From a virus (lineage: Duplodnaviria > Caudoviricetes): a stretch of DNA of 55,101 nucleotides. Below are positions 7,927-55,101 of the stretch, piece after piece. Position 1 is the first letter of the stretch; each line of letters begins with the position of its first letter. Both the position numbers and the translations under genes were made by a program. The notes beneath the pieces were generated by a model. It was given only the letters and a program-made list of their open reading frames with translations, was not told where the DNA came from and made no database searches. Where the stretch lies: the IMG/VR virus record IMGVR_UViG_3300023109_000032, positions 1-55,101 of that record; one strand, given 5' to 3'.

Positions 7927-9945
7927 ATGGGAGAAATTTATCCAGAAGAAGAAGAAAAGCAAAGAAAGCCTAAATTTAAAAAACAGACTTTAGTCTTAGA
8001 TACTTATGGTACTAATTTAAGTAAAAGAGCTATCGAAGGTAAATTAGATCCAGTCATCGGAAGAACTGATGAAATCCTTAGGGTTATACAAATTCTAGGA
8101 AGACGTAGAAAAAACAATCCTGTTTTAGTTGGGGAACCCGGTGTAGGTAAAACTGCAATTGTTGAAGGGTTAGCATTAAAAATGGTAGAAGGAAATGTTC
8201 CTGTATCATTACAAGGTAAAGTTATCTATACTTTAGAATTATCAACAATCGTAGCAGGAACAAAATACCGTGGTCAATTCGAGGAAAGAATGAAAAGTAT
8301 TGTAGATGAGTTAATACTTAATCCACATATTATTGTTTTTATTGATGAATTACATACACTCGTTGGGGCAGGAGGTTCTACAGGATCCTTGGATGCGTCA
8401 AATATTATTAAGCCAGCATTAGCAAGAGGAGAAATTAGATGTATAGGTGCAACTACATTTGATGAGTTTAGAGAAAACATCGAAGACGATGGGGCTTTGG
8501 ATAGAAGGTTTCAAAAAGTTACAGTTGAACCACCAACGATGGATCAAACTATTGAAATACTTTCTAATATAAGACATAAGTATGAAGAGCACCATAATGT
8601 TTCTTATGATGATTCAATAATTGAAATTATTGTTAAATTAGCAGATCGTTATATTATGGATAGGTACTTTCCTGATAAAGCAGTAGATATATTAGATGAG
8701 GTAGGTTCTTATAAACACTTAATTAATATGAAAGTTCCTCAAAAAATCAAAGCATTAGAAGAAAAGTTAATTCAAAAAGAAAATGCTAAGAGGAAGGCTG
8801 TATCACGACAACTTTACGAAGTAGCTGCAAAAGAAAGGGATGCATGCTTAACACTCAAAGAAAGAATTAAACAAGATCTTGCGATATGGAAAGAACAAAT
8901 GGCTGTTAATCAATTAGAGATAACCGAAGATGATGTATTAAAGGTTGTATCTAAATCAACAGGTGTTCCAATTGAAAAAATATCAGATAAAGAAAATAAA
9001 AATTTATTAGGGCTTAATAAACATTTATCATCAAGAGTTATAGGACAAGATGAAGCAGTTAATAAAATTGCAGTAACAGTGCAAAGAAACCGAGTAGGTA
9101 TTAGAAAAAGAAACCGAACAATGGGTAACTTTATTTTCTTAGGACCTACTGGAGTTGGTAAAACTCAATTAGCAAAAGAATTAACAGAATATCTTTTTAA
9201 TAGTGAAGATTCATTAATTAGAGTTGATATGTCTGAATACATGGAACCTCATTCTATTTCTAAATTAATTGGAGCACCTCCTGGATATGTAGGATTTGAA
9301 GGTGGTGGATTTTTAACAGAGCAGGTAAAGAGAAAACCGCATTCTGTTGTATTATTTGACGAGATAGAAAAAGCTCATCCAGAAGTCTTTAATGTACTTC
9401 TACAAATGTTAGATGATGGGCAGTTAACCGATTCTTTAGGAAGGACTGTTGATTTTAGAAATTGTTTAATAATTCTTACTTCAAATACAGGATCTAGAAA
9501 ATTACAAGATTTTGGCCAAGGTATCGGTTTTGAAAGTTCTACTAAAATGGTTAACCAAGCTGAAGAAGAAAAAACTATTTTAAGAAAGGCTCTTAAAAAT
9601 AAATTCTCACCAGAATTTTTAAATAGAATTGATGAGATTGTAGTATTTAATAGATTAACCGAAGATAATGTAATGGATATTTTAACTAAAGAATGTAAAG
9701 AACTTGCATCTAATTTAGAAGAAGTAGGAAATTATATTTTTAAAATATCTAAAGGTGCTAAAACAATAATTCTTAATCAAGGATATGATCCTAAATATGG
9801 AGCAAGACCATTACGTAGAACAATTGAAAGAATGATTGAAAATAAGATATCTGAGCATATTCTTAAAGGAGAATTAAAAGAAGGCGGTACTATTAATATT
9901 AAAAGTACCAAAGGTGAATTAATAATTGACATAACAAATATATGA
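7927..9945 (+). CDS. clpC: ClpC-type Hsp100 AAA+ ATPase lacking the N-terminal Clp repeat domain
   Basis: Walker A GEPGVGKT and GPTGVGKT; RVDMSEY; [10 protein letters not shown]; UVR-like M-domain; GIGF ClpP-docking loop; GARPLRR. Confidence 0.92.
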
Positions 9946-14046: not shown

Positions 14047-14210
14047 TGGGAACGATAATGGAAATGTTTGCATGCCTATTTATTATAGGATTAAGTTTTT
14101 TATTTCATTTAATTGTTTATGAAGATGATTGGGTTGAAAAATGGTATTGGAAAGTTTTAGGTGGTGGTGGCATTCTCCTTTTAGTTTTTGCTGCTATACT
14201 AGGTTACTAA
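14046..14210 (+). CDS. small two-TM membrane protein (54 aa, below ORF-track cutoff)
   Basis: TAATG overlap with the upstream gene; MGTIMEMFACLFIIGLSFLF...GILLLVFAAILGY. Confidence 0.55.
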   Translation: MGTIMEMFACLFIIGLSFLFHLIVYEDDWVEKWYWKVLGGGGILLLVFAAILGY

Positions 14211-31431: not shown

Positions 31432-31890
31432 ATGCAAATTACAGAACACAGATCGGAATTAGGAAACGGATTTTCAATTACTCAACAAGTAAAAGGTAAG
31501 CAATACAAATTCCATGCCCATAAGCACGGATTATGCTGGGACAAGGAATATGACTATCAAGTTATTACAAAATGTCAAGCTGGGTTTTTTACTGTATCAA
31601 CAGGAAAATCTAAGTTATGCAATATTGTTACAGGTTATAAGACAAACAAATTGCATACTGTACAACTTAAATCTGAAAGCGGTTTTTATCTAACTGCTCT
31701 TGCAATGAAAGGTGGTAAGTTCTACCTAATAGATAAAGAAATCCTAGAATGTTTAACAGTAGGAGATATTCATTCTAACTTTCCTGCAATGGCTGACTAC
31801 AACCATTGGAAAAACATCGGTTCAAAAACATGGGCAGATCCAGCATACGGAATGTTAGTTAACTCAACAGTACAGTTTCAAAATTGTTAA
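31432..31890 (+). CDS. hypothetical protein
   Basis: ORF directly behind the cassette. Confidence 0.7.
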   Translation: MQITEHRSELGNGFSITQQVKGKQYKFHAHKHGLCWDKEYDYQVITKCQAGFFTVSTGKSKLCNIVTGYKTNKLHTVQLKSESGFYLTALAMKGGKFYLIDKEILECLTVGDIHSNFPAMADYNHWKNIGSKTWADPAYGMLVNSTVQFQNC

Positions 31891-31991
31891 TAACTTTTTG
31901 AAAATAACAAGATTTTATAGTTCAGAATCACAAAAAAAGTATTATATTTATACTATAAATAATTAATTAAACAAACATAAAAACGGAAATT
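31882..31991 (+). promoter_or_regulatory. repeated promoter cassette, copy 3
   Basis: Same cassette; AAACGGAAATT-ATG. Confidence 0.8.
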
Positions 31992-32870
31992 ATGGCAAAA
32001 GTACAAAAAATCAAATCAAGGCTAACTCAGATTAGCAATGTCAAATATGAGAAAGGATTATTCGAGGCTCATAAAACAAACACACCATTAGATGGGTTAT
32101 TCTCAATTGATGGCGGAGTTCCAAAAGCAACTAACTGGATGGTAGTTGGAGATCCTGGTGTTGGTAAATCTACTGTAACACTAGATATTATTGCAAATGC
32201 AAAAAAGACTGGATCTAAAGTACTATTCATTTCAGCTGAGATGAACCAGGTGGATCTTTACCTTTATGTTAAAAGATATCCTAAGTTCGGAGAATTAGAT
32301 ATATTCTTTCCACAAGAAATAGAAGACAATGAGGATCCGAAACAAGTACTAGAAGAAATCTTATCTGAAGGGTATGATATTGTTTTAACCGACTCCTTTA
32401 TTGAATTACAAGAAACAATCAGAGAATCAGGTAGAATGACCAGAAACAGTTCTGAGAAATACTTATTGGATTTAATGTACCGACATAATCTAGGTGATAA
32501 CAAAGCTAAGAAGTTTACATCTTTCCTTAATATACAACAAGTAAACAAAGGTGGTACATTTGTCGGATCAAATAAACTGAAGCATATGACTACGGGTATG
32601 ATGGAGATAAGGTTCGTAGATGAAAGGGATCAGGAAGAAAGGTATGTTACTTTTTCTAAAAACCGTCGAGGTCATGTAGGAAAACAAATGTATTTTGATT
32701 TAGCTGCATCTGGAGATGTAACTTATGATACTGAAAGGTTCAAAAAAGCTGAAGGTCTAAAGCAATTAAAGAAAGCTGAAAAGGAAAAGATTAAAAAATC
32801 AGGTTTACAATTCGATGCACTATTCGGATTAGATAAAGACAAAGAAGAAAGTGAAACAACAAATAAATAA
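31992..32870 (+). CDS. RadA/Sms-like RecA-fold ATPase (no Zn finger or Lon domain)
   Basis: GDPGVGKST, LFISAEM, VLTDSF, GSNKLKHM, SKNRRG. Confidence 0.8.
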   Translation: MAKVQKIKSRLTQISNVKYEKGLFEAHKTNTPLDGLFSIDGGVPKATNWMVVGDPGVGKSTVTLDIIANAKKTGSKVLFISAEMNQVDLYLYVKRYPKFGELDIFFPQEIEDNEDPKQVLEEILSEGYDIVLTDSFIELQETIRESGRMTRNSSEKYLLDLMYRHNLGDNKAKKFTSFLNIQQVNKGGTFVGSNKLKHMTTGMMEIRFVDERDQEERYVTFSKNRRGHVGKQMYFDLAASGDVTYDTERFKKAEGLKQLKKAEKEKIKKSGLQFDALFGLDKDKEESETTNK

Positions 32871-35100: not shown

Positions 35101-35518
35101 TCTGAGACAACCTTATAGTAATCGCGTATACCAGTAATACCATTATATACGCATTGTACTCATATTCCTTTCGGTCTTATCAGTTAATCCGTTCCGGTAG
35201 TCCGATATGCTGAAACTGGCTCATGACTTACGGTTCCAGACAACTATGATATATACTAGCTGAAATGTACCTTTTCTATGGTCCTGTGATTAACTAATAG
35301 TCCCTCTAAGTACTCCTCTCAACTGTAAGTACCCATAAATAGCCTTTTTAGTGGTCAATGTCTAGTAGAGAAATCCAAATCCGCGGGCACATGCTAACAC
35401 CTGACCTAGGGGTCCAGAATCCTACCGAGCTGAATCTGTACTCTGAAGAATCACCTACATGTACTCATAGCACTATAATACTGTACTCCAACAGGAATAG
35501 CCCTGGTACTGGCGAAGC
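35101..35518. repeat. non-coding region with clustered GTAC(TC) repeats
   Basis: GTAC at 35156, 35267, 35310, 35329, 35438, 35461, 35483 and 35506. Confidence 0.55.
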
Positions 35519-35612
35519 AATTGTTAATAACTTTTTGAAAATAACTGCCTAAGTATGGCCCGAGTCGCGAAAAATTGATTATATTTATATTATAATTAAA
35601 AAACAAACTACT
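35519..35612 (+). promoter_or_regulatory. repeated promoter cassette, copy 5 (divergent middle)
   Basis: AATTGTTAATAACTTTTTGAAAATAAC...AAAAATTGATTATATTTATA. Confidence 0.8.
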
Positions 35613-35813
35613 ATGGCACAATTTAAATTAAAGCAATACATGTTTACCTTCGAAGGTGGAGGTTGGAATACCGTCTGGGCTAAAACTAAAGCCGGCGCCA
35701 TTAAGGCAGCAATGCTCGAGTACAAAGATTCGGATAGTCTGAATCCTCGAAAAGAATCGTTCCATGTAGCAACCGAGGCTGGGCTACAATCAGCAATGAG
35801 CCTCTTCTATTAA
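35613..35813 (+). CDS. hypothetical protein
   Basis: ORF behind the cassette. Confidence 0.7.
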   Translation: MAQFKLKQYMFTFEGGGWNTVWAKTKAGAIKAAMLEYKDSDSLNPRKESFHVATEAGLQSAMSLFY

Positions 35814-35836
35814 TCTAATAACTAAAAACGGAAATT

Positions 35837-36232
35837 ATGCAAAGTATTAAACAATTCAACAAGACAAAAATCATTCAACTAAGAAGTTCAATCAATGAGG
35901 CGCTAGACCAGGTAGCTAAAGAATATGGTATTACTATATCAGCTGGCAATTGCTCATTCTCAGGTAATGAGGCTAACTTCAAACTTAAGCTAAATACTAT
36001 TGGAGACAACGGTACTGTTATTACTCGCGAATCTCAGATGTGGGATCTATATAAAAGCAGAACAAACTGTGGCCACCTGAGTATTGGAGATAAGATAACA
36101 ATCCAAGGTAATACTTATACGCTAAGCGGTTACAATACCAGAGCTAGAAAGGCTCCGATTAACTTTACTGATAGTAGAGGTAATGGCTACAAATGTTCTA
36201 TCCAAATGTTGAACCAATACAACTCTAAATAA
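35837..36232 (+). CDS. hypothetical protein
   Basis: Preceded by AAACGGAAATT. Confidence 0.7.
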   Translation: MQSIKQFNKTKIIQLRSSINEALDQVAKEYGITISAGNCSFSGNEANFKLKLNTIGDNGTVITRESQMWDLYKSRTNCGHLSIGDKITIQGNTYTLSGYNTRARKAPINFTDSRGNGYKCSIQMLNQYNSK

Positions 36233-36233
36233 T

Positions 36234-36485
36234 ATGGACTTACAATATATTGAAAAGGAAGCTGTGCTGGATTTTATCAATGGAATGGATGAGGTTTCGA
36301 CCGACTCCATTCTAGATGATCCAAGTATACAACAACTACTAACTGGCAGTGTACCTCAACAAATCGAAGATCAACCTAATCCTCTAGGTACTATTGAAAG
36401 CTTTCTACAACTGTTTATAGCTAGAGAAGAATATGAAATTTGTGCCGATCTACTCAAGGCCGTTCCAGAGCTAGGTAAATACTAG
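36234..36485 (+). CDS. acidic protein with C-terminal UVR-like helix
   Basis: FIAREEYEICADLLK. Confidence 0.6.
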   Translation: MDLQYIEKEAVLDFINGMDEVSTDSILDDPSIQQLLTGSVPQQIEDQPNPLGTIESFLQLFIAREEYEICADLLKAVPELGKY

Positions 36486-37170
36486 GCAAATTATGATGTA
36501 AAAACACTCCTTTTTTGGGTGCAAATACCAGGTCCTCTAGACAGCCGCTCTAGAAGGCCTATATTTGTGTGTATTTTAGGCTATATATGGGCTATATTGG
36601 GCCTCTAGAAGCAGCTAATATCGTCAAAGTTCGTCTAGATGCACCCTATATAGCTCCCTACAGGCCGCTAGTAGCCCTATATTGCCGCTATATTCGTCTA
36701 TAATGGGTATATATGATCATTTGCCGCAACAGTCTTAGAAGTCACGTCCTGTATAGCCGATAGCACCAACCCTTGCTAGCTCACAAATACAACTACTAAA
36801 TCATCAACAACCCTAGTACGGTCTAGACAAGCTATAGGGCCCGCTAGACTACAGTTACCAGCAATATCCATAGTATAGCAACAACACGAGCAACTAGCTA
36901 TATGGTGGTCTAGTAGTGGTGGTAGTCTTGTGGCCATGATCAACTGCGTTGTGGTGGCAAGAGACAATCAAGAGTATCTTTCTCTTAAAGTGTATTTTTC
37001 TCTTAAGCATCTAGAGGTCTACTGGGCGCATGACTTTTACCTGTACAAAAATTTCCAGTCTAGAAAAAGAGCTAGTCCAGATATGTGAACCGATTACTAT
37101 GTCTATTCGGTTCATTTCTAGTCCAGAAAAAAACTAGCCCGAAAAAAATATGTGTAAAAAAAGTCTTATA
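36486..37170. other. long non-coding element with phased CTA repeats, CTAG cluster and hairpin (candidate ori/pac/genome end)
   Basis: No credible ORF; 17 CTAG in 36482-37137; CTA about every 10.6 bp over 36537-36709. Confidence 0.55.
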
Positions 37171-37174
37171 CTAC

Positions 37175-37206
37175 TTTCAGAGTTAAGGTACACTTGTTAT
37201 ATTTAA
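37175..37206 (+). promoter_or_regulatory. class I promoter
   Basis: TTTCAGA...GTTATATTTAA, 21-nt offset. Confidence 0.65.
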
Positions 37207-37388
37207 ATTAAACAATAACAATAAAAAAGAAACTATGTTAGAAGCCCTTACTCAAAACTCAACAGATGTGACATCAATCAAACTAGCCCTAGACAACATC
37301 GCGCTATCTCTGCGATTCGTTGTATACATTGGTCTGGTAGTATCCGTGTTGTACTGTGGTAATACTATTAATAACTGGAAGAAGTAAA

Positions 37389-37769
37389 ATGAAACTACTG
37401 TTCTGTAATACATGCGAGGATATCGTGAAACTAACAAAGACTACCAGTACCTGCCGTTGTGGCGCGACTGGTGGACATTATAAACAAGACGGACTTAACG
37501 CGGTCTATTACGGTCCTGCTATTCCACTCGGTTTTACTAATAGTACTTTTGTAGATGCTATTCGTAATCAACCTGAGTACGGGGATGGCTACCGTTATAC
37601 TAGTTTTGTTATTCCTAAGGTCTGTCCTACTATGGTCCATATAGATATTGATGATTATGAAGAAGTGGTTGATTACTATTGGGATGACGGGTTTGATGAT
37701 GTAATGGAAGAAGCTGAGTTACAGAAGAAACAAAAGAAATTGAAAAATGTATTTAAAGATGAGGATTAG
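37389..37769 (+). CDS. Cys-containing hypothetical protein
   Basis: Likely start at 37389; CNTC...CRCG. Confidence 0.65.
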   Translation: MKLLFCNTCEDIVKLTKTTSTCRCGATGGHYKQDGLNAVYYGPAIPLGFTNSTFVDAIRNQPEYGDGYRYTSFVIPKVCPTMVHIDIDDYEEVVDYYWDDGFDDVMEEAELQKKQKKLKNVFKDED

Positions 37770-37955
37770 AAAAGGAGTATTAAAGTTCTGTGAGAACTGT
37801 ATTTACGGGATAGGTTGGACTTTTATGGGCGGACTCTGTTGTTTAATTATGGGGGCAATCGGATTCGCGTTCTACCAATTGTTTCTGGAGGTGTTTAGTT
37901 AACTATGTGCTTCAGATGAAAAATGTGCGACGGATGTGCGACCGCCCTATAAAGA

Positions 37956-38153
37956 ATGCAAGTACTAATAATAAATAAAGAAATGAAAAAAATATTAAAG
38001 TTTATACAAAAAGAATTCTGGCTAACTTTTATGTTAGTCGGTGTAGGTCTATTGACTTGGGCAATAAGTCAAGGCGAAGGATTTGCAGGCCACATCCCAC
38101 TGGCTTGTTTGTTTATATTAGCAGGTGTGGGATTAGAATCAAATAAAAATTAA
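37956..38153 (+). CDS. small membrane protein
   Basis: Two TM segments. Confidence 0.55.
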   Translation: MQVLIINKEMKKILKFIQKEFWLTFMLVGVGLLTWAISQGEGFAGHIPLACLFILAGVGLESNKN

Positions 38154-38156
38154 TGT

Positions 38157-38345
38157 ATGATCAATAGAGGAAGAGAATGGGATTGGATGGAAGAAGAAGT
38201 TCAAGTAGAGGAAATACTAACAGAAGCCAATGCATACAATCTTAAAGCTGAGGTTAATATTACTGCTATGAAATTTATGAAAGAAGATCCTGAACTTAGT
38301 AAGGTAGCCGCATATCAGATGGCTTACATTGAATGGGTAAAATAA
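38157..38345 (+). CDS. hypothetical protein
   Basis: ORF track. Confidence 0.6.
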   Translation: MINRGREWDWMEEEVQVEEILTEANAYNLKAEVNITAMKFMKEDPELSKVAAYQMAYIEWVK

Positions 38346-38351
38346 CAATAT

Positions 38352-38540
38352 ATGACAACAATTAATTATATAGCAATTTATATGTTAGTAGGAATCGTGT
38401 TTTCGGCTGGGTTTGAATATTTAATGGCAAAGCTAGATTCTCCACGAAAAAATGAAACCGATAATTGGAAAAGATTAGTTTGGATTACTGCATGGCCGTA
38501 CTGTGCTCTTATGTTTTTCGTAGGTATGTTTAGAAAATAA
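38352..38540 (+). CDS. small membrane protein
   Basis: Two TM segments, WP motif. Confidence 0.6.
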   Translation: MTTINYIAIYMLVGIVFSAGFEYLMAKLDSPRKNETDNWKRLVWITAWPYCALMFFVGMFRK

Positions 38541-39849: not shown

Positions 39850-39938
39850 GCCGCTGTGGTGGAATTGGTAGACACGACAGACTTAAAATCTGTTGAGCAG
39901 TAATGCTCGTGGCGGTTCGAGCCCGCCCAGCGGTACCA
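39850..39938 (+). tRNA. tRNA-Leu(TAA), CCA encoded
   Basis: Acceptor GCCGCTG/CAGCGGT; anticodon arm ACAGA-CTTAAAA-TCTGT; long variable arm; GGTTCGA. Confidence 0.95.
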
Positions 39939-39952
39939 AAAAATAAAAAGAT

Positions 39953-40132
39953 ATGAATAGTAAATTATACAGAGGAAAGGGTTATGTTGGCGGGGTATGC
40001 CAGGGGCTAGGTGAATGGTCAGGAATACCTCCAATCTTATGGAGATTAATTTTTTTGTTTACACCTATACCATCTGCTTTTCTCATGTATGTAGTCTTAT
40101 GGATATTTCTTAAAAAGGGCTTTCAGAATTAA
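39953..40132 (+). CDS. PspC-domain protein (59 aa, missed by ORF track)
   Basis: KLYR...VGGVCQGLGEWSGIPPILWRLIF...YVVLWIFL. Confidence 0.85.
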   Translation: MNSKLYRGKGYVGGVCQGLGEWSGIPPILWRLIFLFTPIPSAFLMYVVLWIFLKKGFQN

Positions 40133-40151
40133 AGCAAATAGATTATAATTA
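40121..40151 (+). promoter_or_regulatory. class I promoter
   Basis: TTTCAGA...ATTATAATTA, 21-nt offset. Confidence 0.6.
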
Positions 40152-40179
40152 TACTATAACAATTAAACTATAAAATAAT

Positions 40180-40431
40180 ATGGCAGATTTACAAAAAGGA
40201 GATAAAGTAACGTGGGTAGCTGAAATGCAATGTGTACCACACCCTGAAGGAAAAACTGATAGAAAGGGCGAAGTACTTCCAGTATTTAGAGATAAAGATA
40301 TGACTGGTACTATTGTTAATTCTCATTATGACAATAAATTCACCGTAAGACCTGATGGGTATACTACACCTAGAGGAATGGATTCTTATTATGATAAAAT
40401 GGTACCGGGTAAAAAACTTTCAAAGATTTAA
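40180..40431 (+). CDS. hypothetical protein
   Basis: ORF track. Confidence 0.65.
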   Translation: MADLQKGDKVTWVAEMQCVPHPEGKTDRKGEVLPVFRDKDMTGTIVNSHYDNKFTVRPDGYTTPRGMDSYYDKMVPGKKLSKI

Positions 40432-40434
40432 TGT

Positions 40435-40656
40435 ATGAGTATTCAAATTAAAACAGAAAAGGAAGTTTGGTGGGCATCAACCAAAGAATATGATCTTGAA
40501 GTAAATGGAGAAAATGTATCAGTAAGAATTGCTGAAACTCCAAAAGAAACTGAATTCTTTGAATGGAATGAAACTACTGGATGGGAACCTGCTGATATTG
40601 ATAGCGGATTAATGAAAGAAGTATATGACGCATGGTCAAACGGAGAAATAGAATAA
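40435..40656 (+). CDS. hypothetical acidic protein
   Basis: ORF track. Confidence 0.65.
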   Translation: MSIQIKTEKEVWWASTKEYDLEVNGENVSVRIAETPKETEFFEWNETTGWEPADIDSGLMKEVYDAWSNGEIE

Positions 40657-40804
40657 AATGAATTGGAAAAAGATAAAAGAAAATAATATGTATAGACAAG
40701 GCAGATCTGAGGAACAAGTAAGAGGAGCTTATATAGGAGCCTTTATTGCAATCATAGGATTGGCTGTTACATTAATTATAGCAGCTTTAACATCATAAAG
40801 ATCT

Positions 40805-40878
<74 letters not shown>

Positions 40879-40886
40879 CCGCGACT

Positions 40887-45231: not shown

Positions 45232-45657
45232 TTACATTCCTATGTCTTTATGAAGAACTTTCATAAAACCTTTATAAGTATGTTGGCCATACTCATCTCT
45301 TAATATTTGACCAACAGCCAGTGCAAAATCTTCATATGACATGGAGTCATCTATTTTAATCATTGCTTTATCCATTGCTTTTGCTAAAGCTTCAGACTTC
45401 TTAGATTCAAATATATTAAATTTAGACACGTGATTTTCATTTTGAGTTTTTTCATCTTCATGACCTTCTTTCCAATGAGGACTTATAACACCAGGATCTC
45501 TAGTTGGATGAACATCAAATCCTTGTCTTACTGGGCTATCATACGCGTTAGTATCTTTTCCTCCGGCTAAATCATCAAACATATCTTTAAATTGTTTGAT
45601 AGTTCCTTTATAATGTCTAATTGCATTTTCATCTTTATCTTCTTGTGGTGTTTCCAT
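45232..45657 (-). CDS. hypothetical protein (putative head-associated)
   Basis: Internal HVSKFNIFE|S leader-like motif. Confidence 0.6.
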   Translation of the reverse strand: METPQEDKDENAIRHYKGTIKQFKDMFDDLAGGKDTNAYDSPVRQGFDVHPTRDPGVISPHWKEGHEDEKTQNENHVSKFNIFESKKSEALAKAMDKAMIKIDDSMSYEDFALAVGQILRDEYGQHTYKGFMKVLHKDIGM

Positions 45658-46112
45658 TACTTTCCGTATTTTTGCTTAAGCTGATGTATCTTAGTTTGAT
45701 ATCCTAATTTTTTTATATCTATTTTGTCTATTGCAATTCTCAGTTGATAATATTCTACACCAAAAGGATCTTCTCTATCTTGTGCAGCTCTGAACCTTTC
45801 AATATTTTGTTGTTCTCTTCTCTTTAATCTTTCAGCAGTTGAATTTGGATTAAATTCATGTTTCTCAGCTTCAACAATTCCATCTTTACCATCCATAGTA
45901 TCATGTACTGAATTTAGATTTTTAACTGAGTCTGAAATTTTAGAATACATCCAAGCATCTAATTGTTGACCCTGTGACATTCTATCTTTAATCATATCAG
46001 CATAATCACCAATTCTTTCTAAGTCAGTTGATGCCATGCTATTAAGATTGTCAATAGTTTTATCATTTTCATTAAAGGATTCAAATCCTGGTATTAAATC
46101 TATACTTGCCAT
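45657..46112 (-). CDS. putative internal head protein
   Basis: Leader LIPGFESFNE|N; LDAWMYSKIS motif. Confidence 0.55.
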   Translation of the reverse strand: MASIDLIPGFESFNENDKTIDNLNSMASTDLERIGDYADMIKDRMSQGQQLDAWMYSKISDSVKNLNSVHDTMDGKDGIVEAEKHEFNPNSTAERLKRREQQNIERFRAAQDREDPFGVEYYQLRIAIDKIDIKKLGYQTKIHQLKQKYGK

Positions 46113-46113
46113 A

Positions 46114-46581
46114 TTAAAATGTTGAATTCATGATTAGTTCTGCAATCTCTTGTTCCCATGCTTTTACTGATCTACTACTAATCGCTTTTTGATCGTAAAA
46201 TTCAGCTACGATAAGCTTTGCCAATACTTTTGCTCCAGAAGGTTTATCTTTTCCTTTTATTTGAACCATTGCTTCATTAACTTCACCTTCATTAGTAGCA
46301 GAATAAGATTCATAAGCTTTATCTATTGCTTCATTAATATGTTTCTTAGCTTCTTTAAGATATGAATCGGCTTTATGTTCGTCATTATCATTTTTTTCAT
46401 AAGTATCTGCTTCTTGTGCTATATGATTGGAACATGATTCTACTACACCGGCTATCGGAGTCATACTATAACCTGTTTGTGGTGTTGCTCCACCTAGTGC
46501 AAAATTATTGATTCCCATCTGACCAAAACCTGCTGCTACAATGGTTTCATTAAATTTATCGAACTCTGGTATCTTACTCAT
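46114..46581 (-). CDS. putative internal head protein
   Basis: Leader MSKIPEFDKFNE|T; INE|A; VNE|A; AATATATA upstream on the minus strand. Confidence 0.55.
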   Translation of the reverse strand: MSKIPEFDKFNETIVAAGFGQMGINNFALGGATPQTGYSMTPIAGVVESCSNHIAQEADTYEKNDNDEHKADSYLKEAKKHINEAIDKAYESYSATNEGEVNEAMVQIKGKDKPSGAKVLAKLIVAEFYDQKAISSRSVKAWEQEIAELIMNSTF

Positions 46582-47097: not shown

Positions 47098-47434
47098 ATT
47101 ATTATTGGCATTTTTGCTGTTCTTTACAGGCCAAGCAGCAATATGGTTTCAAACAAACGGACAATTTGTATGGCCTTGGTTTAAAAAGAACCCATTTACA
47201 GTTTCAGTTTTATTTGGAACTGCAATTAGTTACATATTAATTTATGGCACCAGGTTTATGGTAGAATATTATGATGGCTTATTGTGGCCAGGTAGATTTA
47301 TTGCATTTGGTTCTGGTATTATTTCGTTTACATTTTTAACTTGGTATTTTCTTGGGGAAGGCATTACTACAAAAACTATAGTATCACTGTTCTTAGCCTG
47401 TAGCTTAATAGGCATACAGTTATTTTGGAAATGA
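47090..47434 (+). CDS. four-TM membrane protein (DMT/SMR-like)
   Basis: Four hydrophobic helices; YFLGEGIT before the last helix. Confidence 0.65.
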   Translation: MNKLLLAFLLFFTGQAAIWFQTNGQFVWPWFKKNPFTVSVLFGTAISYILIYGTRFMVEYYDGLLWPGRFIAFGSGIISFTFLTWYFLGEGITTKTIVSLFLACSLIGIQLFWK

Positions 47435-48249
47435 AAGATCCATATAACATATTAGGAGTAGATAAAGCTTCATCAGAAAATGATATTAAAAAGGCTTATA
47501 GAAAATTAGCTAAAGAGTATCATCCTGATAAAGCAGAAGGCAATGAAGAAAAATTCAAAGAAATTGCAGATGCATATGAAACTCTAAGTAATCCACAAAA
47601 GAAAAATCAGTATGATCAAATGGCAAATAATCCGTTTGCTGATTTTGGGCATGATTTTACTGGTAGTATGTTTGATGATTTATTAAAGAATCAAAATTTT
47701 GCTGGAGCATTTAATCAAAGATATGGTTACAATACGAAAGGTAGAAATACCACGGGTGTTTTGAGAATAACATTAGCCGATGCTTATTACGGTACGAGCA
47801 GAGATGTTGGTATTGGTATGAAAACTATAAAGGTTGACATCCCACCTGGTATAAGAAGCGGGCAGAAGTTAAGATTAAAAGGATTAGGGCAAAGAGGGCA
47901 AACCGAAGATCTTAACGGTGATCTGATTATGACTATAGAAGTTATTAATGATTCTAATTTTTTTGTCGATAACCAAGGTTTACATACAATAAAGAATATA
48001 ACTCTTTACGATGCTATCTTAGGAGGGAAGGAAAGTATTGATTGCTTTGACAAAACTATAACATTTACAATTCCACCTGGTACTATTAATGGAAAAGTAT
48101 TAAGAGTCAAAGGAAAAGGCTTTCCAGTATACAAGCAATCTACATTTTCTGATTTGCTTATAAGCATTATAGTAGATATACCAATAAACTTAGATGAAGA
48201 AGATAAGAAATTAATACAAAAAATAAAAGATAAACATAATGGAAAATAA
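47425..48249 (+). CDS. DnaJ/CbpA-type co-chaperone (no Zn finger)
   Basis: DPYNILGV, IKKAYRKLAKEYHPD, IPPG..GQKLRLKG, LRVKGKG. Confidence 0.93.
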   Translation: MEMKDPYNILGVDKASSENDIKKAYRKLAKEYHPDKAEGNEEKFKEIADAYETLSNPQKKNQYDQMANNPFADFGHDFTGSMFDDLLKNQNFAGAFNQRYGYNTKGRNTTGVLRITLADAYYGTSRDVGIGMKTIKVDIPPGIRSGQKLRLKGLGQRGQTEDLNGDLIMTIEVINDSNFFVDNQGLHTIKNITLYDAILGGKESIDCFDKTITFTIPPGTINGKVLRVKGKGFPVYKQSTFSDLLISIIVDIPINLDEEDKKLIQKIKDKHNGK

Positions 48250-49325: not shown

Positions 49326-49398
49326 TGTGCCTTGGTGTAACTGGCAACACGTCTGGTTTTGGTCCAGAAGAGTAGAGGTTCGATCCCTTTAGGCACAA
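49326..49398 (+). tRNA. tRNA-Gln(TTG), no encoded CCA
   Basis: Acceptor TGTGCCT/AGGCACA; TCTGG-TTTTGGT-CCAGA; GGTTCGATCC. Confidence 0.93.
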
Positions 49399-49402
49399 CA
49401 TA

Positions 49403-49477
49403 CGGGATGTAGCGTAGTCCGGTCATCGCGCCGCGTTTGGGACGCGGAGGTCGCAGGTTCGAATCCTGCCATCCCGA
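49403..49477 (+). tRNA. tRNA-Pro(TGG), no encoded CCA
   Basis: Acceptor CGGGATG/CATCCCG; CCGCG-TTTGGGA-CGCGG; GGTTCGAATCC. Confidence 0.95.
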
Positions 49478-49491
49478 CAACACTGTTTCAG

Positions 49492-52654: not shown

Positions 52655-55101
52655 ATGGCAACGTCATTTAACCTACAAGAATATATTCTTTTTAGAACAG
52701 AAATAAAAAGAGAGCTTACCAATAATGAAGTAGACACTAATTTTAAAATGGTGGCTAATCCTTGGGAAGATACTAGAATATATGAAATAGGAAACATTGT
52801 ATATCATCCGGTAATAGTAGATGATCCCTCAACAACAGGATTAGATCAAGTCTTAGCTTGGTGGAGAGCAAACGTTAGAACTACACAAGGTGTGTTTGAT
52901 ACATTTCAATGGGATATGATTGGAGGTATTGGTTCTGGTAATATTAATATACAAGGCGCGAATAGTTTTGGTAAAATTAAAGTTAACTCTACCGCACCAA
53001 CTGGAGCTTTACAAGCTGGTTTTGATGCATTAGTAGAATCGTCAACTCCTAATGATACTTTTAATTTTATTGCAGGCCAAGGAATACAATTACAATATAA
53101 CCTATCTTCTAAATCAATAAAAGTTGTAAATACATTAGCATCCAATCCAGGTGAAGTAAATATTGGAGAAAATATAGGTCTGGGTGCTACACATCAAGAT
53201 ATCTATTCAGGCAAAGTTGGTGTTAATCTACAATTTTATGGTTTAGATTCAACCAATACTGGAGCGGGAACTGCATTAACTATAAGTACTGATTCCACAT
53301 TACAGAATGTTGTTTACAATTTTGATGAAGGTGAAGTTGACTTAGCTCAATTAAATAGTGGAGCACCAACAATTGGTATGTTATCAAATGTAGCGACCGG
53401 TGCAGATACTCCTGCTGCTAACGGGTATATTTTACAATGGAGTGCTAGTGCTGGTGAATATCAACCAATACCAATAGGTTCATTAGGACAAGTAAATATT
53501 TATGGTAGTGATGGGTCAATAGGTTCTGCTACTAGAATTGTTTCATTAAGTGGGTCTGCAGGCCAATTACAATTTAATAGACTTACTAATACAAAAACAG
53601 GTTTACATATTGATAATACAGCAACAACACATCAATTACAACTTAGAGTTGAAAGTGCTACTGGGAATGCTGCAACTCAATATGCATTAAATTCTGTAGT
53701 AGTAGCAACTGCTGGTATTTATGGTACTGATGGTTCCTTTGGTATTAATTTTGGTGCTACTGGTTTACAGGGGTTGAGCGTTGATGGTTTAAGTATATCT
53801 TCAAATAATGAATTATATGTTCCTCAACTGGCGTCTGATACAATAACAACAGTAGAATCATTTAGGATTCCTTTAGTTGATATAGGTGTTGCAAGTACAG
53901 GTAAGTTTGATTCTGGTGATCAATATGAAGTATCATCGTATTCAACTGATGCACCTAATACTTATTTAAGAGTTTCACAGAAAGGTGAATACTATTTAAG
54001 GTCTGGTAACCAAAGCGGCCAAACAGATTCTAAATCATTTTTAATCGATGTTGAGCATGATTATTCAAATGGATTAATTGATGGGTTTGGTTTATACATG
54101 AATTATAAGACACCTACAAATATTGAAGGTGTTAATATTTTACAGTGGATGGACAAGGCAGACAGTCGTTATATAGGAAACCAAATACAAACAGATATAA
54201 CAAGTGACGATGCTACTAAATACATTGGTTCTAATATATCGCTATCTTATAAGACAGGTTTATCAATTACTGTTGGGGAAATGATATCATTCACAGAGGC
54301 ATCAGCAGGTGGGTCTCCACAAACAATAGGTTTATATTCTAATGTTGTAGATACATTTGCTCAAAATGAACAAGACGGTGAAGCAATTCTAACCAGCTTA
54401 ATTGCTGACAGTGGAACATGGGCTGGTTATTTTGTAGGTTGTGTTAATATAGATCAAGGTGGATTAGTTCTTCCTTCTACAAGTTTTGCAAATAGGCCAT
54501 TATGTAATGATGTAAGTGGTGGAAATATTGATGATAGGATATTATGGATTAATTCTGCAAATGGCCACTTATACAGAGGGACTGTTGATATTGAAGCAGG
54601 AACTGGCGGTAGCTCAACATTAAGCGGTTTAACTGATGTTTCAATTACAAATATACAGGATGATCAATTGCTTGTATATAATAGTTCTACTAATGTATGG
54701 GAGAATGCATCTTTAGCTGCTTATAATTTAAATGCAGTTGGATTATCAAATGGGGCTGTAAGTATCCAATTAAGTGATGGGGCTGCAAGTAGCGATGTTG
54801 ATTTAGTACCTGGTTCAAATATCTCGTTTGTTGTAAATGAAATAACTGATGAAATAACAATCAATGCTGTTGGTGGTGGTGCACAAGGACCACAAGGACC
54901 ACAAGGCCCACAAGGGTCTGGTGAAACTGGAGCAACTGGAATCCAAGGTCCACAAGGTCCACAAGGTCCACAAGGTTCTGGTGAAACTGGTGCAACTGGT
55001 ATTCAAGGCCCACAAGGTCCACAAGGTATTCAAGGTCCACAAGGGTCTGGTGAAACTGGTGCAACTGGTATTCAAGGCCCGCAAGGACCGCAAGGTATTC
55101 A
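52655..55101 (+). CDS. tail fibre-like structural protein with collagen-like region (3'-truncated by window)
   Basis: ATG at 52655, in frame with the collagen repeats and apparently open to the window end; [10 protein letters not shown] and LSGLTDV..QLLVYNS..WEN fibre-type motifs. Confidence 0.8.
54878..55101 (+). repeat. collagen-like tandem repeat (GPQ)[12 protein letters not shown]
   Basis: 9-nt GGNCCACAA units within 60-69 nt higher-order repeats. Confidence 0.92.

Follow-up and report, generated by a model that had tools for sequence, protein, structure and literature searches.

What kind of element is a tract of DNA in which short TA-containing words return at about every turn of the double helix in a place where the phage carries no gene? 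The tract lies at positions 36531-36716 (no strand assigned) of the window, that is, of the whole 55,101-nucleotide stretch analyzed here, which derives from an uncultured marine jumbo phage with nearly all genes on one strand. It consists of about 17 units. The spacer that holds it is 750 bp long, more than any other ORF-free stretch of the window's phage, and extends from the end of an upstream operon to a conserved sigma-70-like promoter. An earlier note, made from the letters alone, had listed 17 sites with a mean spacing of about 10.6 bp. All 17 were verified letter by letter (14 CTA, GTA at 36571 and 36707, and CAA at 36625), and the intervals between them range from 9 to 13 bp with a mean of 10.625 bp. 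Because no further CTA occurs between 36483 and 36775, the number of off-phase copies is zero.

The helical-repeat periodicity proved to be real. Between 36530 and 36715, CTA shows a peak at 10.7 bp with a power of 9.11 that was matched in 1 of 2000 dinucleotide shuffles and in 8 of 20,000 random placements, and the TA step peaks at the same 10.7 bp, a value equaled by none of 2000 shuffles. Among 5493 sliding 180-bp segments, the scores of CTA (9.11) and TA (9.19) both rank first, the runners-up reaching 6.01 and 7.71, respectively. At 10-11 bp, GC/AT periodicity (5.71) ranks first as well, here of 5492 segments with a median of 0.25, and the array is by all three measures the strongest 10-11 bp signal across the 55-kb window. 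The period in the window is 10.6-10.7 bp. The GC blocks are displaced by 6.1 bp from the TA steps, roughly half a period, so that the two alternate in antiphase as the earlier note had it, and the GC content of the array is 43.5% compared to 32% for the window.

CTA is merely the local spelling of the repeat in this phage. The true unit combines a GC head of 4-6 bp with a TA-rich core of 5-7 bp (TATATA, TCTAGA, or TATTTT), and the repeated words exceed CTA, being mainly CTATAT and TCTAGA after a GC-rich head. The array is a degenerate tandem array, and the notion that it holds no exact tandem repeat has to be abandoned: TRF identified an 11-bp unit at 36579-36602, a repeat search recovered families of 18-19-mers, and relatives gain and lose whole units. 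Specific enrichment within the arrays is seen for TCTAGA and (C)TATAT, the density of TCTAGA being 14.2 per kb there versus 2.6 per kb elsewhere in the spacers. Near the 5' edge of the array lie the paired palindromes TCTAGA-N7-TCTAGA (36536-36554, no strand assigned). The more relaxed arrangement TCTAGA-N5-8-TCTAGA is confined to the array, occurring once in G000, once in the 181-kb G006, and twice in the 67-kb G005; it is not found in G001 and G002, two contigs that stop short of the array. In an alignment of six homologues, the columns of TCTAGA and GCCTAT are invariant. In view of these enriched words and invariant columns, the idea that shape and not sequence carries the information goes too far.

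Comparison with related phages, found by using a Cys-rich 126-aa protein encoded downstream as an anchor, extended this picture. The position and polarity of the array are conserved among the relatives, whose arrays comprise approximately 10-20 units of 10 or 11 bp and measure roughly 110-210 bp. The phased but divergent tracts that the earlier note had envisaged in related phages do exist: for 26 of 32 non-redundant relatives, the top GC/AT period within the range of 6-16 bp lies between 10.3 and 10.7 bp (mean 10.50, standard deviation 0.08), and in each of the 26 none of 100 shuffles reached the peak, although the relatives share ancestry and these cases therefore do not represent 26 independent events. 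Downstream coding DNA, used as a control, peaked at 10-11 bp in 0 of 30 cases. TA steps alone follow the helical period in 19 of the 32. The six relatives that lack a top peak at 10-11 bp include three without any peak exceeding the shuffles (L101, L102, and L106) and three with a peak near 9.5 bp (L104, L128, and L131). The relatives span 55-100% identity of the neighboring protein. The phase is kept while the words drift. In a comparison of six arrays, CTA keeps a 10-11 bp period only in the window and in the homologue closest to it and is no longer the periodic word in more distant relatives; all six retain a peak at 10.3-10.7 bp for TA and for the pattern TCTAGA|ATAT, which is weakest in L034 and L035. 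The arrays also evolve by whole units. Among pairs sharing 75-99.5% identity, 56 of the 68 internal gaps that are at least 3 bp long measure 9-11 or 20-21 bp, and such gaps are also visible in alignment A2. However, slippage gives any tandem repeat whole-unit indels, and the gaps therefore are no proof of selection for phase. In the 181.7-kb relative (G006), a scan of 18,196 segments returned the array as the sole outlier (5.14, the next value being 2.16). This genome segment thus contains a single array, and the spacer around it, with 778 bp, is again the largest ORF-free stretch.

Neither a coding sequence nor a structured RNA, the two explanations that the earlier note regarded as fatal to its view, is supported. 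Under translation table 11, just one frame, of 44 aa and starting with GTG, is open in the tract. Longer frames are open if TAG is read as glutamine, but the lengths of the internal gaps, 47 of 68 being 10, 11, or 20 bp, argue against this candidate. Fold z-scores relative to shuffles are unremarkable and not significant (-1.06 for the array, 0.14 and 2.02 for the middle region of the spacer), and the interval 35500-38500 has no Rfam match at an E-value below 0.98. RNAalifold found 0 consensus pairs in the 3' block of the spacer, which is a weak test with two of nine rows out of register. RNA contigs of the upstream genes end at 36438 and 36454. Both flanks of the array are represented in RNA contigs from three studies, and the array itself is touched by only one RNA contig of low depth (2.3), at 36524-36727. 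The adjoining stretch from 36742 to 37143 has no RNA contig cover and, with contigs only, is uninformative either way. RNA contigs from two studies start at 37226 and 37230, which is a weak hint in support of the predicted promoter.

The remaining parts of the spacer are arranged in a defined order. A leader (36486-36530, plus strand) reaches from the stop codon of an 83-aa ORF to the array and includes a short GC-poor dyad with a T-run behind it. A second subgroup of relatives has a clear hairpin and T-run in its place; a terminator scan of the window called none. The array is followed by the variable middle of the spacer (36720-36960, plus strand), which is C/A-rich up to approximately 36895 and then G/T-rich. 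This composition is conserved: counted from the first TCTAGA pair, GC skew is negative between +60 and +280 (0-5 of 23 relatives positive per bin) and positive at +380 (20 of 23) and +400 (22 of 23). The tandem 18-mers AAGAGTATCTTTCTCTTA and AAGTGTATTTTTCTCTTA (36970-37005, plus strand), which are kept in relatives, open a conserved 3' block. It also contains two near-palindromes of the form TTTC(C/T)AGTC(T/C)AGAAA (37051-37131, no strand assigned) that are 63 bp apart and followed by A-tracts; they are conserved in the alignment of relatives and look like operators, as far as their sequence can tell. The predicted sigma-70-like promoter (TTCAGA-N16-TATATT with a TG extension; 37176-37203, plus strand) is conserved in relatives and lies 470-650 bp behind the array. 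The downstream operon starts with genes for a 50-aa hydrophobic protein (37235-37387, plus strand) and for the conserved Cys-rich 126-aa protein used as the anchor (37389-37769, plus strand). Neither product matches a Pfam family above the cut-off, and the AlphaFold model of the Cys-rich protein is poor (mean pLDDT 55.6).

Based on these results, the array is best explained as a single-copy, cis-acting DNA element that is bendable toward one face and serves the assembly of a protein, a reading to which we assign a probability of roughly 0.55. Across roughly 110-210 bp, flexible TA-step cores would recur on the same face of the helix, and many copies of an oligomerizing protein, which may be phage-encoded, virion-borne, or of host origin, would bind to that face with one unit per helical turn. 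The DNA would be bent or wrapped as a result, giving a defined nucleoprotein complex. The role of the array would be to mark a unique landmark of the genome. Such a role is suggested because the array is touched by a single RNA contig of low depth, precedes an operon of small genes, and belongs to a genome coded almost entirely on one strand.

The earlier note had named a small terminase ring, a topoisomerase, an initiator, or a histone-like protein as possible partners, and none of them could be singled out as the binder. Searches of five partial records, each covering at most 65% of the genome, yielded no match above the cut-off to HU/IHF and no Phage_integrase, ParB_N, or histone-fold protein. 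The ORFs neighboring the array lack a DNA-binding family, and no regulator was recognized among them. The 181.7-kb relative encodes a T4 gp52-like type II topoisomerase, whose 449-aa subunit appears too short for a wrapping C-terminal domain. Strong gyrase sites of the Mu SGS type combine a preferred cleavage site with an anisotropically flexible arm, and the flexibility pattern of such an arm is present in the array. Annotation could not be transferred from a cultured relative either: no match was obtained when 50,697 phage records were searched by blastn with the spacer and by tblastn with the Cys-rich protein. A tblastn search with the FtsH-like protein returned distant or unannotated matches only, and the 131-aa upstream ORF retrieved no relatives.

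The array shows the helical-turn spacing of phased protein-binding arrays such as cox-boxes and parC iterons, its own cognate oligomerizing protein being putative. The parC locus of plasmid R1 has ten 11-bp iterons in two sets of five; every iteron binds a ParR dimer, and the curved DNA folds into a U-shaped complex (PMC2241845). Those iterons are exact in length, flank their own promoter, and lie directly upstream of parM and parR, whereas the array mixes 10- and 11-bp units and is not part of a par operon. An R1-type parC/ParMR locus is also not indicated by the genes downstream, which lack a family assignment, or by the distance between the array and the promoter.

Among the more specific roles that such an element could play, a replication origin or site of initiator loading is tentatively favored over a site of packaging, a terminus, or an entry site. 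In this case the array would provide an iteron-like platform for an initiator, and the adjoining skewed tract and the AT-rich A-tract region before the promoter would unwind or prime with the aid of transcription from the early promoter. The uniqueness of the array within the largest spacer, the single low-depth RNA contig, the conserved succession of a C-rich and a G-rich tract, and the conserved promoter downstream would all fit, as would the T4 gp52-like topoisomerase of the relative and a gene for a RecA/DnaB-like ATPase 3.6 kb upstream of the array in the window. That promoter points away from the array, however, no initiator gene adjoins the array in any relative examined, and GC skew reveals no genome-scale switch or inversion. 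Moreover, the units of just 10-11 bp are very degenerate and shorter than classical iterons, those of plasmids being longer. A parallel is offered by the T4 origin oriE, which pairs evenly spaced 12-nt repeats with the early promoter on which it depends, and related phages retain similar repeats at syntenic places (PMC3016281). Like oriE, the array has short direct repeats at even spacing in a region linked to an early promoter. The oriE repeats are 12 nt long and exact enough to be named iterons, whereas the array units are degenerate. The role of the oriE repeats is itself unproven (PMC3016281), and a RepEB-like initiator was not identified for the array.

Alternatively, though with more doubt, the bendable DNA might be recognized via conformational selection by the ring of a small terminase or by some other protein of packaging or ejection, in which case the array would lie at, or close to, the physical beginning of a genome read in one direction. 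The strong strand bias (135 of 141 ORFs of at least 150 aa on one strand in 181 kb) and the placement of this single site within the largest spacer, shortly before a host-type promoter and many small genes, would suit such a function. The termini or the first headful cut map at or near pac and cos sites, usually beside the terminase genes. Of 25 viral contigs, 9 stop less than 800 bp upstream of the anchor gene, compared to an expectation of 0.67, which would also suit a packaging role. However, one of the nine has unrelated coding DNA upstream (L037) and another is cut within the anchor gene (L038), and the ends are scattered over approximately 550 bp of array and spacer instead of meeting at a single nucleotide, as repeats and strain variation would yield. 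Because the stops are spread through the array and spacer, a fixed genome end is rejected as the cause of the breaks. Other contigs, including a DNA contig of run X12, pass straight through the array, the IMG/VR records have no end repeats, and the gene for the large terminase lies 79 kb from the array in G006. The T7 genome, according to Dunn and Studier, reportedly carries arrays of short repeats beside the terminal repeat and ahead of the early promoters. They occupy the non-coding junction of the last and first genes of a one-direction genome, are irregularly spaced at approximately 10-14 bp, and lie upstream of strong host-type promoters. A literature search on terminal-repeat arrays of the T7 type found no description, and the T7 arrays flank a terminal repeat, unlike the array here, which is seen in contigs from records without end repeats. 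A likeness in composition is found in the pac DNA of SF6 and SPP1, which shows the same alternation of AT runs with GC pairs and has been likened to nucleosome-core DNA; the small terminase recognizes such bendable DNA by conformational selection without a strict motif (PMC4737164). That pac site overlaps promoters as well as the beginning of the gene for the small terminase, whereas in G006 the large terminase gene is far from the array.

An unlikely but more far-reaching form of the preferred reading, the one-face protein-assembly element, would regard the array as a shape-coded "spool", a degenerate but strictly phased tract that a protein of this marine jumbo-phage lineage reads mainly by its bendability and that forms the single start of a one-direction 280-kb genome; this start point would serve replication, packaging, or DNA entry. 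Comparable in form are nucleosome-positioning repeats of the TATAAACGCC type, 10-bp repeats reportedly described by Widlund (1999) and Roychoudhury (2000). In these eukaryotic or selected sequences, TA-rich and GC-rich halves alternate each helical turn, as they do in array units like GCCCTATATA. However, the TATAAACGCC-type repeats measure 10 bp, whereas the array period of 10.5 bp is the repeat of free B-DNA, and they bind histone octamers, whereas no histone-fold gene was found in the five partial records searched.

Less probable still is a regulatory filament or loop, with a repressor or activator that polymerizes on the array, contacts the near-palindromes on the promoter side, and switches the early operon off or on. 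Cox and Apl, which polymerize on DNA, would be the model, the Apl sites of phage 186 being relatives of the P2 Cox sites. The half-site TCTAG is common to the near-palindromes and to the TCTAGA cores of the array, and 7 of the 15 TCTAGA sites of the window fall within the 750-bp spacer; most array units have TATA-type cores, however, instead of TCTAGA. In P2, cox-boxes that start 10-11 bases apart regulate promoters, and the DNA has been modeled as wrapped around a Cox helix of nucleosome-like diameter (PMC3936717). Multiple short sites one helical turn apart are thus common to both systems. Yet the cox-boxes have a 9-bp consensus of the TTAAA(G/C)NCA type, occur in about six copies, protect at least approximately 70 bp, and overlap promoters or attP, whereas the array has 10-20 very degenerate GC/TA units distant from the promoter; Cox and ParR arrays overlap or abut theirs. 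The cores TATATA, TCTAGA, and TATTTT and the lack of Phage_integrase in the five partial records also do not match the P2 Cox/186 Apl type, no Cox-like gene was found, and the neighboring genes include no recognizable regulator.

It is very unlikely that the array has no dedicated function and is either a hypervariable minisatellite kept by slippage, with a period near 10.5 bp by accident, or a preferred site of a host enzyme such as DNA gyrase without benefit to the phage: the whole-unit indels, the strong divergence between close relatives, the assembly breaks, and the missing binder could be explained in this way, but a drifting repeat would be expected to homogenize to one unit length or decay, whereas mixed 10- and 11-bp units hold the mean period in most relatives across a wide range of neighboring-protein identity, GC-rich heads are kept against a background of 31-32% GC, and position, polarity, and single copy number are conserved.

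Almost no cis-elements such as origins, ends, or switches have been mapped in uncultured marine jumbo phages. As a unique, conserved, and readily recognized feature of the largest spacer in such a genome, the array provides a landmark. A fragment of approximately 200 bp containing it is usable for pull-downs and footprints, and the array can serve as a marker to orient the fragmentary contigs of this lineage, at the same time being a hot-spot of assembly breaks, beside which more than a third of the viral contigs end. The retention of helical phase (10.50 ± 0.08 bp) while the words drift bears on how proteins read the shape of DNA. If the array indeed acts as a spool, it would be a phage counterpart of nucleosome-positioning sequences and would offer a handle on a new class of DNA-wrapping protein.

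The array lies in a 750-bp spacer (36486-37235) between the stop of an 83-aa ORF and the start of a 50-aa ORF. The sites listed for it in the earlier note, from 36537 to 36709, are all right (14 CTA, two GTA and one CAA, at intervals of 9-13 bp with a mean of 10.625 bp), and no off-phase CTA is present between 36483 and 36775. The site words extend beyond CTA: seven read CTATAT, one CTATAA, and four are CTAGA within TCTAGA, besides variants, with a GC-rich head, for instance GGGC, GCCC, CCGC or CGTC, in front of each. Seven of the 15 TCTAGA sites of the window fall inside the spacer. The same note had seen no exact tandem repeat here, but TRF and a repeat search detect a degenerate tandem array. 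The 10-11 bp peak against shuffles, proposed there as a check, is significant for both CTA and TA at 10.7 bp. In local Fourier analysis, the CTA power of 9.11 was reached by one of 2000 dinucleotide shuffles and the TA signal by none of 2000, and random placement of the 14 sites equalled the CTA signal 8 times in 20,000. Among 5493 sliding 180-bp windows the array ranks first for CTA (9.11, next 6.01) and for TA (9.19, next 7.71), and it also leads 5492 windows for GC/AT alternation in the 10-11 bp band (5.71; median 0.25). Because the array tops both the shuffle and the whole-window tests, the signal is real and not a product of post hoc region choice. GC content rises to 43.5% in the array versus 32% in the window. 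The GC blocks lie 6.1 bp, about half a turn, off the TA steps, and GC heads and TA-step cores face opposite sides of the helix.

A structured RNA or a CDS, the two explanations named earlier as incompatible with a wrapping signal, were looked for and neither is supported. Translation table 11 leaves just a 44-aa frame open; under TAG=Q, frames of 158-160 aa are open, but most indel lengths are not divisible by three. The array region has no Rfam match, and fold z-scores are -1.06 for the array and 0.14 and 2.02 for the middle of the spacer. The array is neither recognisable as RNA nor coding. RNA contigs from three studies span 35615-36454 and resume at 37226, 37230 or 37348, and one low-depth contig (2.3) spans 36524-36727; these contig-level data hint that the array is not clearly transcribed.

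Relatives were collected through the conserved Cys-rich 126-aa gene (37389-37769, + strand) that follows the 50-aa ORF downstream of the spacer. This anchor gave 25 viral-contig loci and 171 metagenome relatives, 80 of which were kept, and many of these loci share a homologous spacer. Counting the window, 48 sequences extend 1050 bp or more upstream of the anchor gene, and 32 were left once near-duplicates (15-mer sharing of at least 50%) had been dropped. TA steps carry a 10-11 bp signal in 19 of the 32, each reached by at most one of 100 shuffles, and their median band power is 7.9 versus 3.5 in downstream coding DNA. With a GC/AT indicator, run in 250-bp windows over periods of 6-16 bp, the strongest period is 10.3-10.7 bp in 26 of the 32 (mean 10.50, sd 0.08; reached by 0/100 shuffles), whereas none of 30 downstream controls peaks at 10-11 bp. 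By this indicator three relatives (L104, L128, L131) peak at 9.4-9.6 bp and three (L101, L102, L106) have no peak above shuffles. Three others (L056, L066, L082) score low by TA steps, yet inspection reveals arrays with TATTTT or AAATAG cores. Coherent tracts measure 64-209 bp in 26/32 by a threshold that understates length, giving 113 bp for the window versus 17 units by eye. The commonest array hexamers in relatives are TCTAGA, CTCTAG, TATATA, CTATAT and ATATAT, and TCTAGA is denser in arrays (14.2 per kb) than in the remaining spacer sequence (2.6 per kb). In more distant homologues the periodic words are TA and TCTAGA or ATAT instead of CTA.

Length changes follow the repeat unit. The alignment of array homologues contains gaps of about 10, 11, 13, 20 and 52 columns. 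In a census of internal gaps between 46 pairs at 75-99.5% identity, which share events so that counts are not independent, gaps of 1, 2, 3, 7, 8 and 9 bp occurred 53, 29, 2, 4, 3 and 8 times, and those of 10, 11, 16, 20, 21 and 29 bp 16, 21, 2, 10, 1 and 1 times; 56 of the 68 gaps of at least 3 bp equal one or two units, again over non-independent pairs. In the 181,663-bp relative G006, the array is the only outlier in 10-11 bp GC/AT periodicity (5.14, next 2.16; 18,196 windows), and TCTAGA-N5-8-TCTAGA is confined to the array in the three records reaching it. The array is thus a single-copy, non-coding element kept at the helical repeat of B-DNA, whose phase is conserved even as the words diverge.

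From 5' to 3' the spacer comprises the upstream operon end (with a clear hairpin and T-run in a second subgroup of relatives), the array, a variable tract, a conserved block, A-tracts and a promoter. The variable tract (36720-36960, + strand), C/A-rich and then G/T-rich, varies in sequence and keeps its composition pattern in relatives: counted from the first TCTAGA pair, GC skew is positive in 0-5 of 23 relatives per bin at +60 to +280, and in 20 and 22 of 23 at +380 and +400 bp. Folding gave no significant RNA structure for this tract. The conserved block (36970-37131) holds tandem 18-mers and two near-palindromes, TTTCYAGTCYAGAAA, 63 bp apart; lying upstream of the 3'-most element, the promoter TTCAGA-N16-TG-n-TATATT, they look like operators.

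Of the 25 viral contigs, nine break off no more than 800 bp ahead of the anchor gene, compared with an expectation of 0.67; they include L037, with unrelated coding DNA upstream, and L038, cut inside the anchor gene itself. Viral and metagenome contig stops (L028, L029, L036, L039-L042, many of L053-L132) are scattered over array and spacer, and run X12 has a DNA contig that spans 35715-37413. We attribute the scattered stops to failed assembly across a tract that is repetitive and varies between strains, which makes the spacer an assembly-breaking hot-spot. As evidence for a fixed physical genome end they were rejected, since they occur at many different places, but they do not speak against such an end either.

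Sequencing runs in which the stretch occurs bear the label seawater or marine metagenome. CheckV rates the window, an IMG/VR virus record of 55,101 bp and a fragment, at 19% of a genome and G006 at 65%, so that the genome would be in the order of 280 kb. Nearly all ORFs of the window (GC 31-32%) are on the + strand; its sole minus-strand block (45232-46581) has three ORFs of 141-155 aa without a family match. In G006, 135 of 141 ORFs of at least 150 aa share one strand, a layout unusually one-directional for a jumbo-phage genome over 181,663 bp, and GC skew is negative in only two of 90 two-kb windows, one just upstream of the spacer. Recognised genes include glycosyltransferases, a sugar epimerase, an endonuclease, thymidylate synthase, a RecA/DnaB-like ATPase, a PNKP-type phosphatase and an ATP-dependent ligase. 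The phage also encodes a full-length FtsH-like ATP-dependent protease (7927-9945; phrog_4871, E 9e-238), a DnaJ with J and C-terminal domains (47425-48249) and four tRNAs (39850-40880 and 49326-49478: Leu-TAA, Arg-TCT, Gln-TTG, Pro-TGG), all decoding A- or U-ending codons, consistent with an AT-rich genome. A tail-fibre-like ORF (52655-55099, >815 aa) is still open at the window's end; its C-terminal part carries collagen-like tandem repeats of 9 and 60-69 bp (Gly-X-Y type; 54882-55101), to which its tail-fibre family matches are confined. A roughly 100-bp intergenic element, directly upstream of genes, has ten + strand copies in the window, 76-85% alike (31860-31995 and at 14209, 14628, 31338, 32869, 35519, 40122, 41179, 43056 and 49482), and recurs multiple times in contigs of two relatives; it resembles a class of phage-specific promoters or leaders that differs from the spacer promoter.

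Of all base-pair steps TA deforms most readily, and once-per-turn alternation of AT-rich and GC-rich segments confers direction-dependent bendability; multimeric proteins bind such DNA on one face or wrap it. Nucleosomal DNA has a period of about 10.2 bp. The 10.5-bp period of the arrays matches free B-DNA instead, and therefore one-face binding or a near-planar bend would fit better than a tight left-handed superhelix. Precedents are found in phages and plasmids. The cox-boxes of P2 start 10-11 bases apart, and their DNA is modelled as wrapping about a spiral of Cox whose diameter resembles that of a nucleosome (PMC3936717); in R1 parC, one ParR dimer binds each of ten 11-bp iterons (PMC2241845); SF6/SPP1 pac DNA, chosen by conformational selection, has been compared to nucleosome-core DNA (PMC4737164); and T4 oriE, which relies on an early promoter, carries 12-nt repeats at even spacing (PMC3016281). 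Given these precedents, the phased, conserved array and its deformable TA steps, the array is a putative protein-assembly and bending site, with a probability of roughly 0.55. Of the wrapping signal proposed in the earlier note, the period, the antiphase and the conserved phase stand, whereas protein wrapping was inferred and no candidate gene was found: searches of five partial records for HU/IHF, integrase, ParB and histone-fold genes were negative. G006 encodes a T4 gp52-like topoisomerase subunit.

The array's spacer is the largest ORF-free stretch of G006 (778 bp, next 614 bp) and stands at the head of a small-gene operon in a one-direction genome, which points to a landmark function. A replication origin, for which oriE offers a parallel, is a tentative candidate; however, an initiator was not found and a large-scale skew switch is absent. 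A packaging, end or entry site comparable to pac is slightly less probable; the distance to the terminase gene, 79 kb in G006, speaks against it. That the array nucleates a regulatory filament or loop is doubtful: Cox-like assemblies would suit it, but array and promoter are 470-650 bp apart. An array without function is very improbable for a phase so widely kept.

The putative assembly and bending site belongs to a known kind of element, the helically phased binding array; narrow searches of phage records and literature found no description of this one. What is new is a long, degenerate, GC/TA-coded array kept at 10.50 bp across an uncultured marine jumbo-phage lineage.
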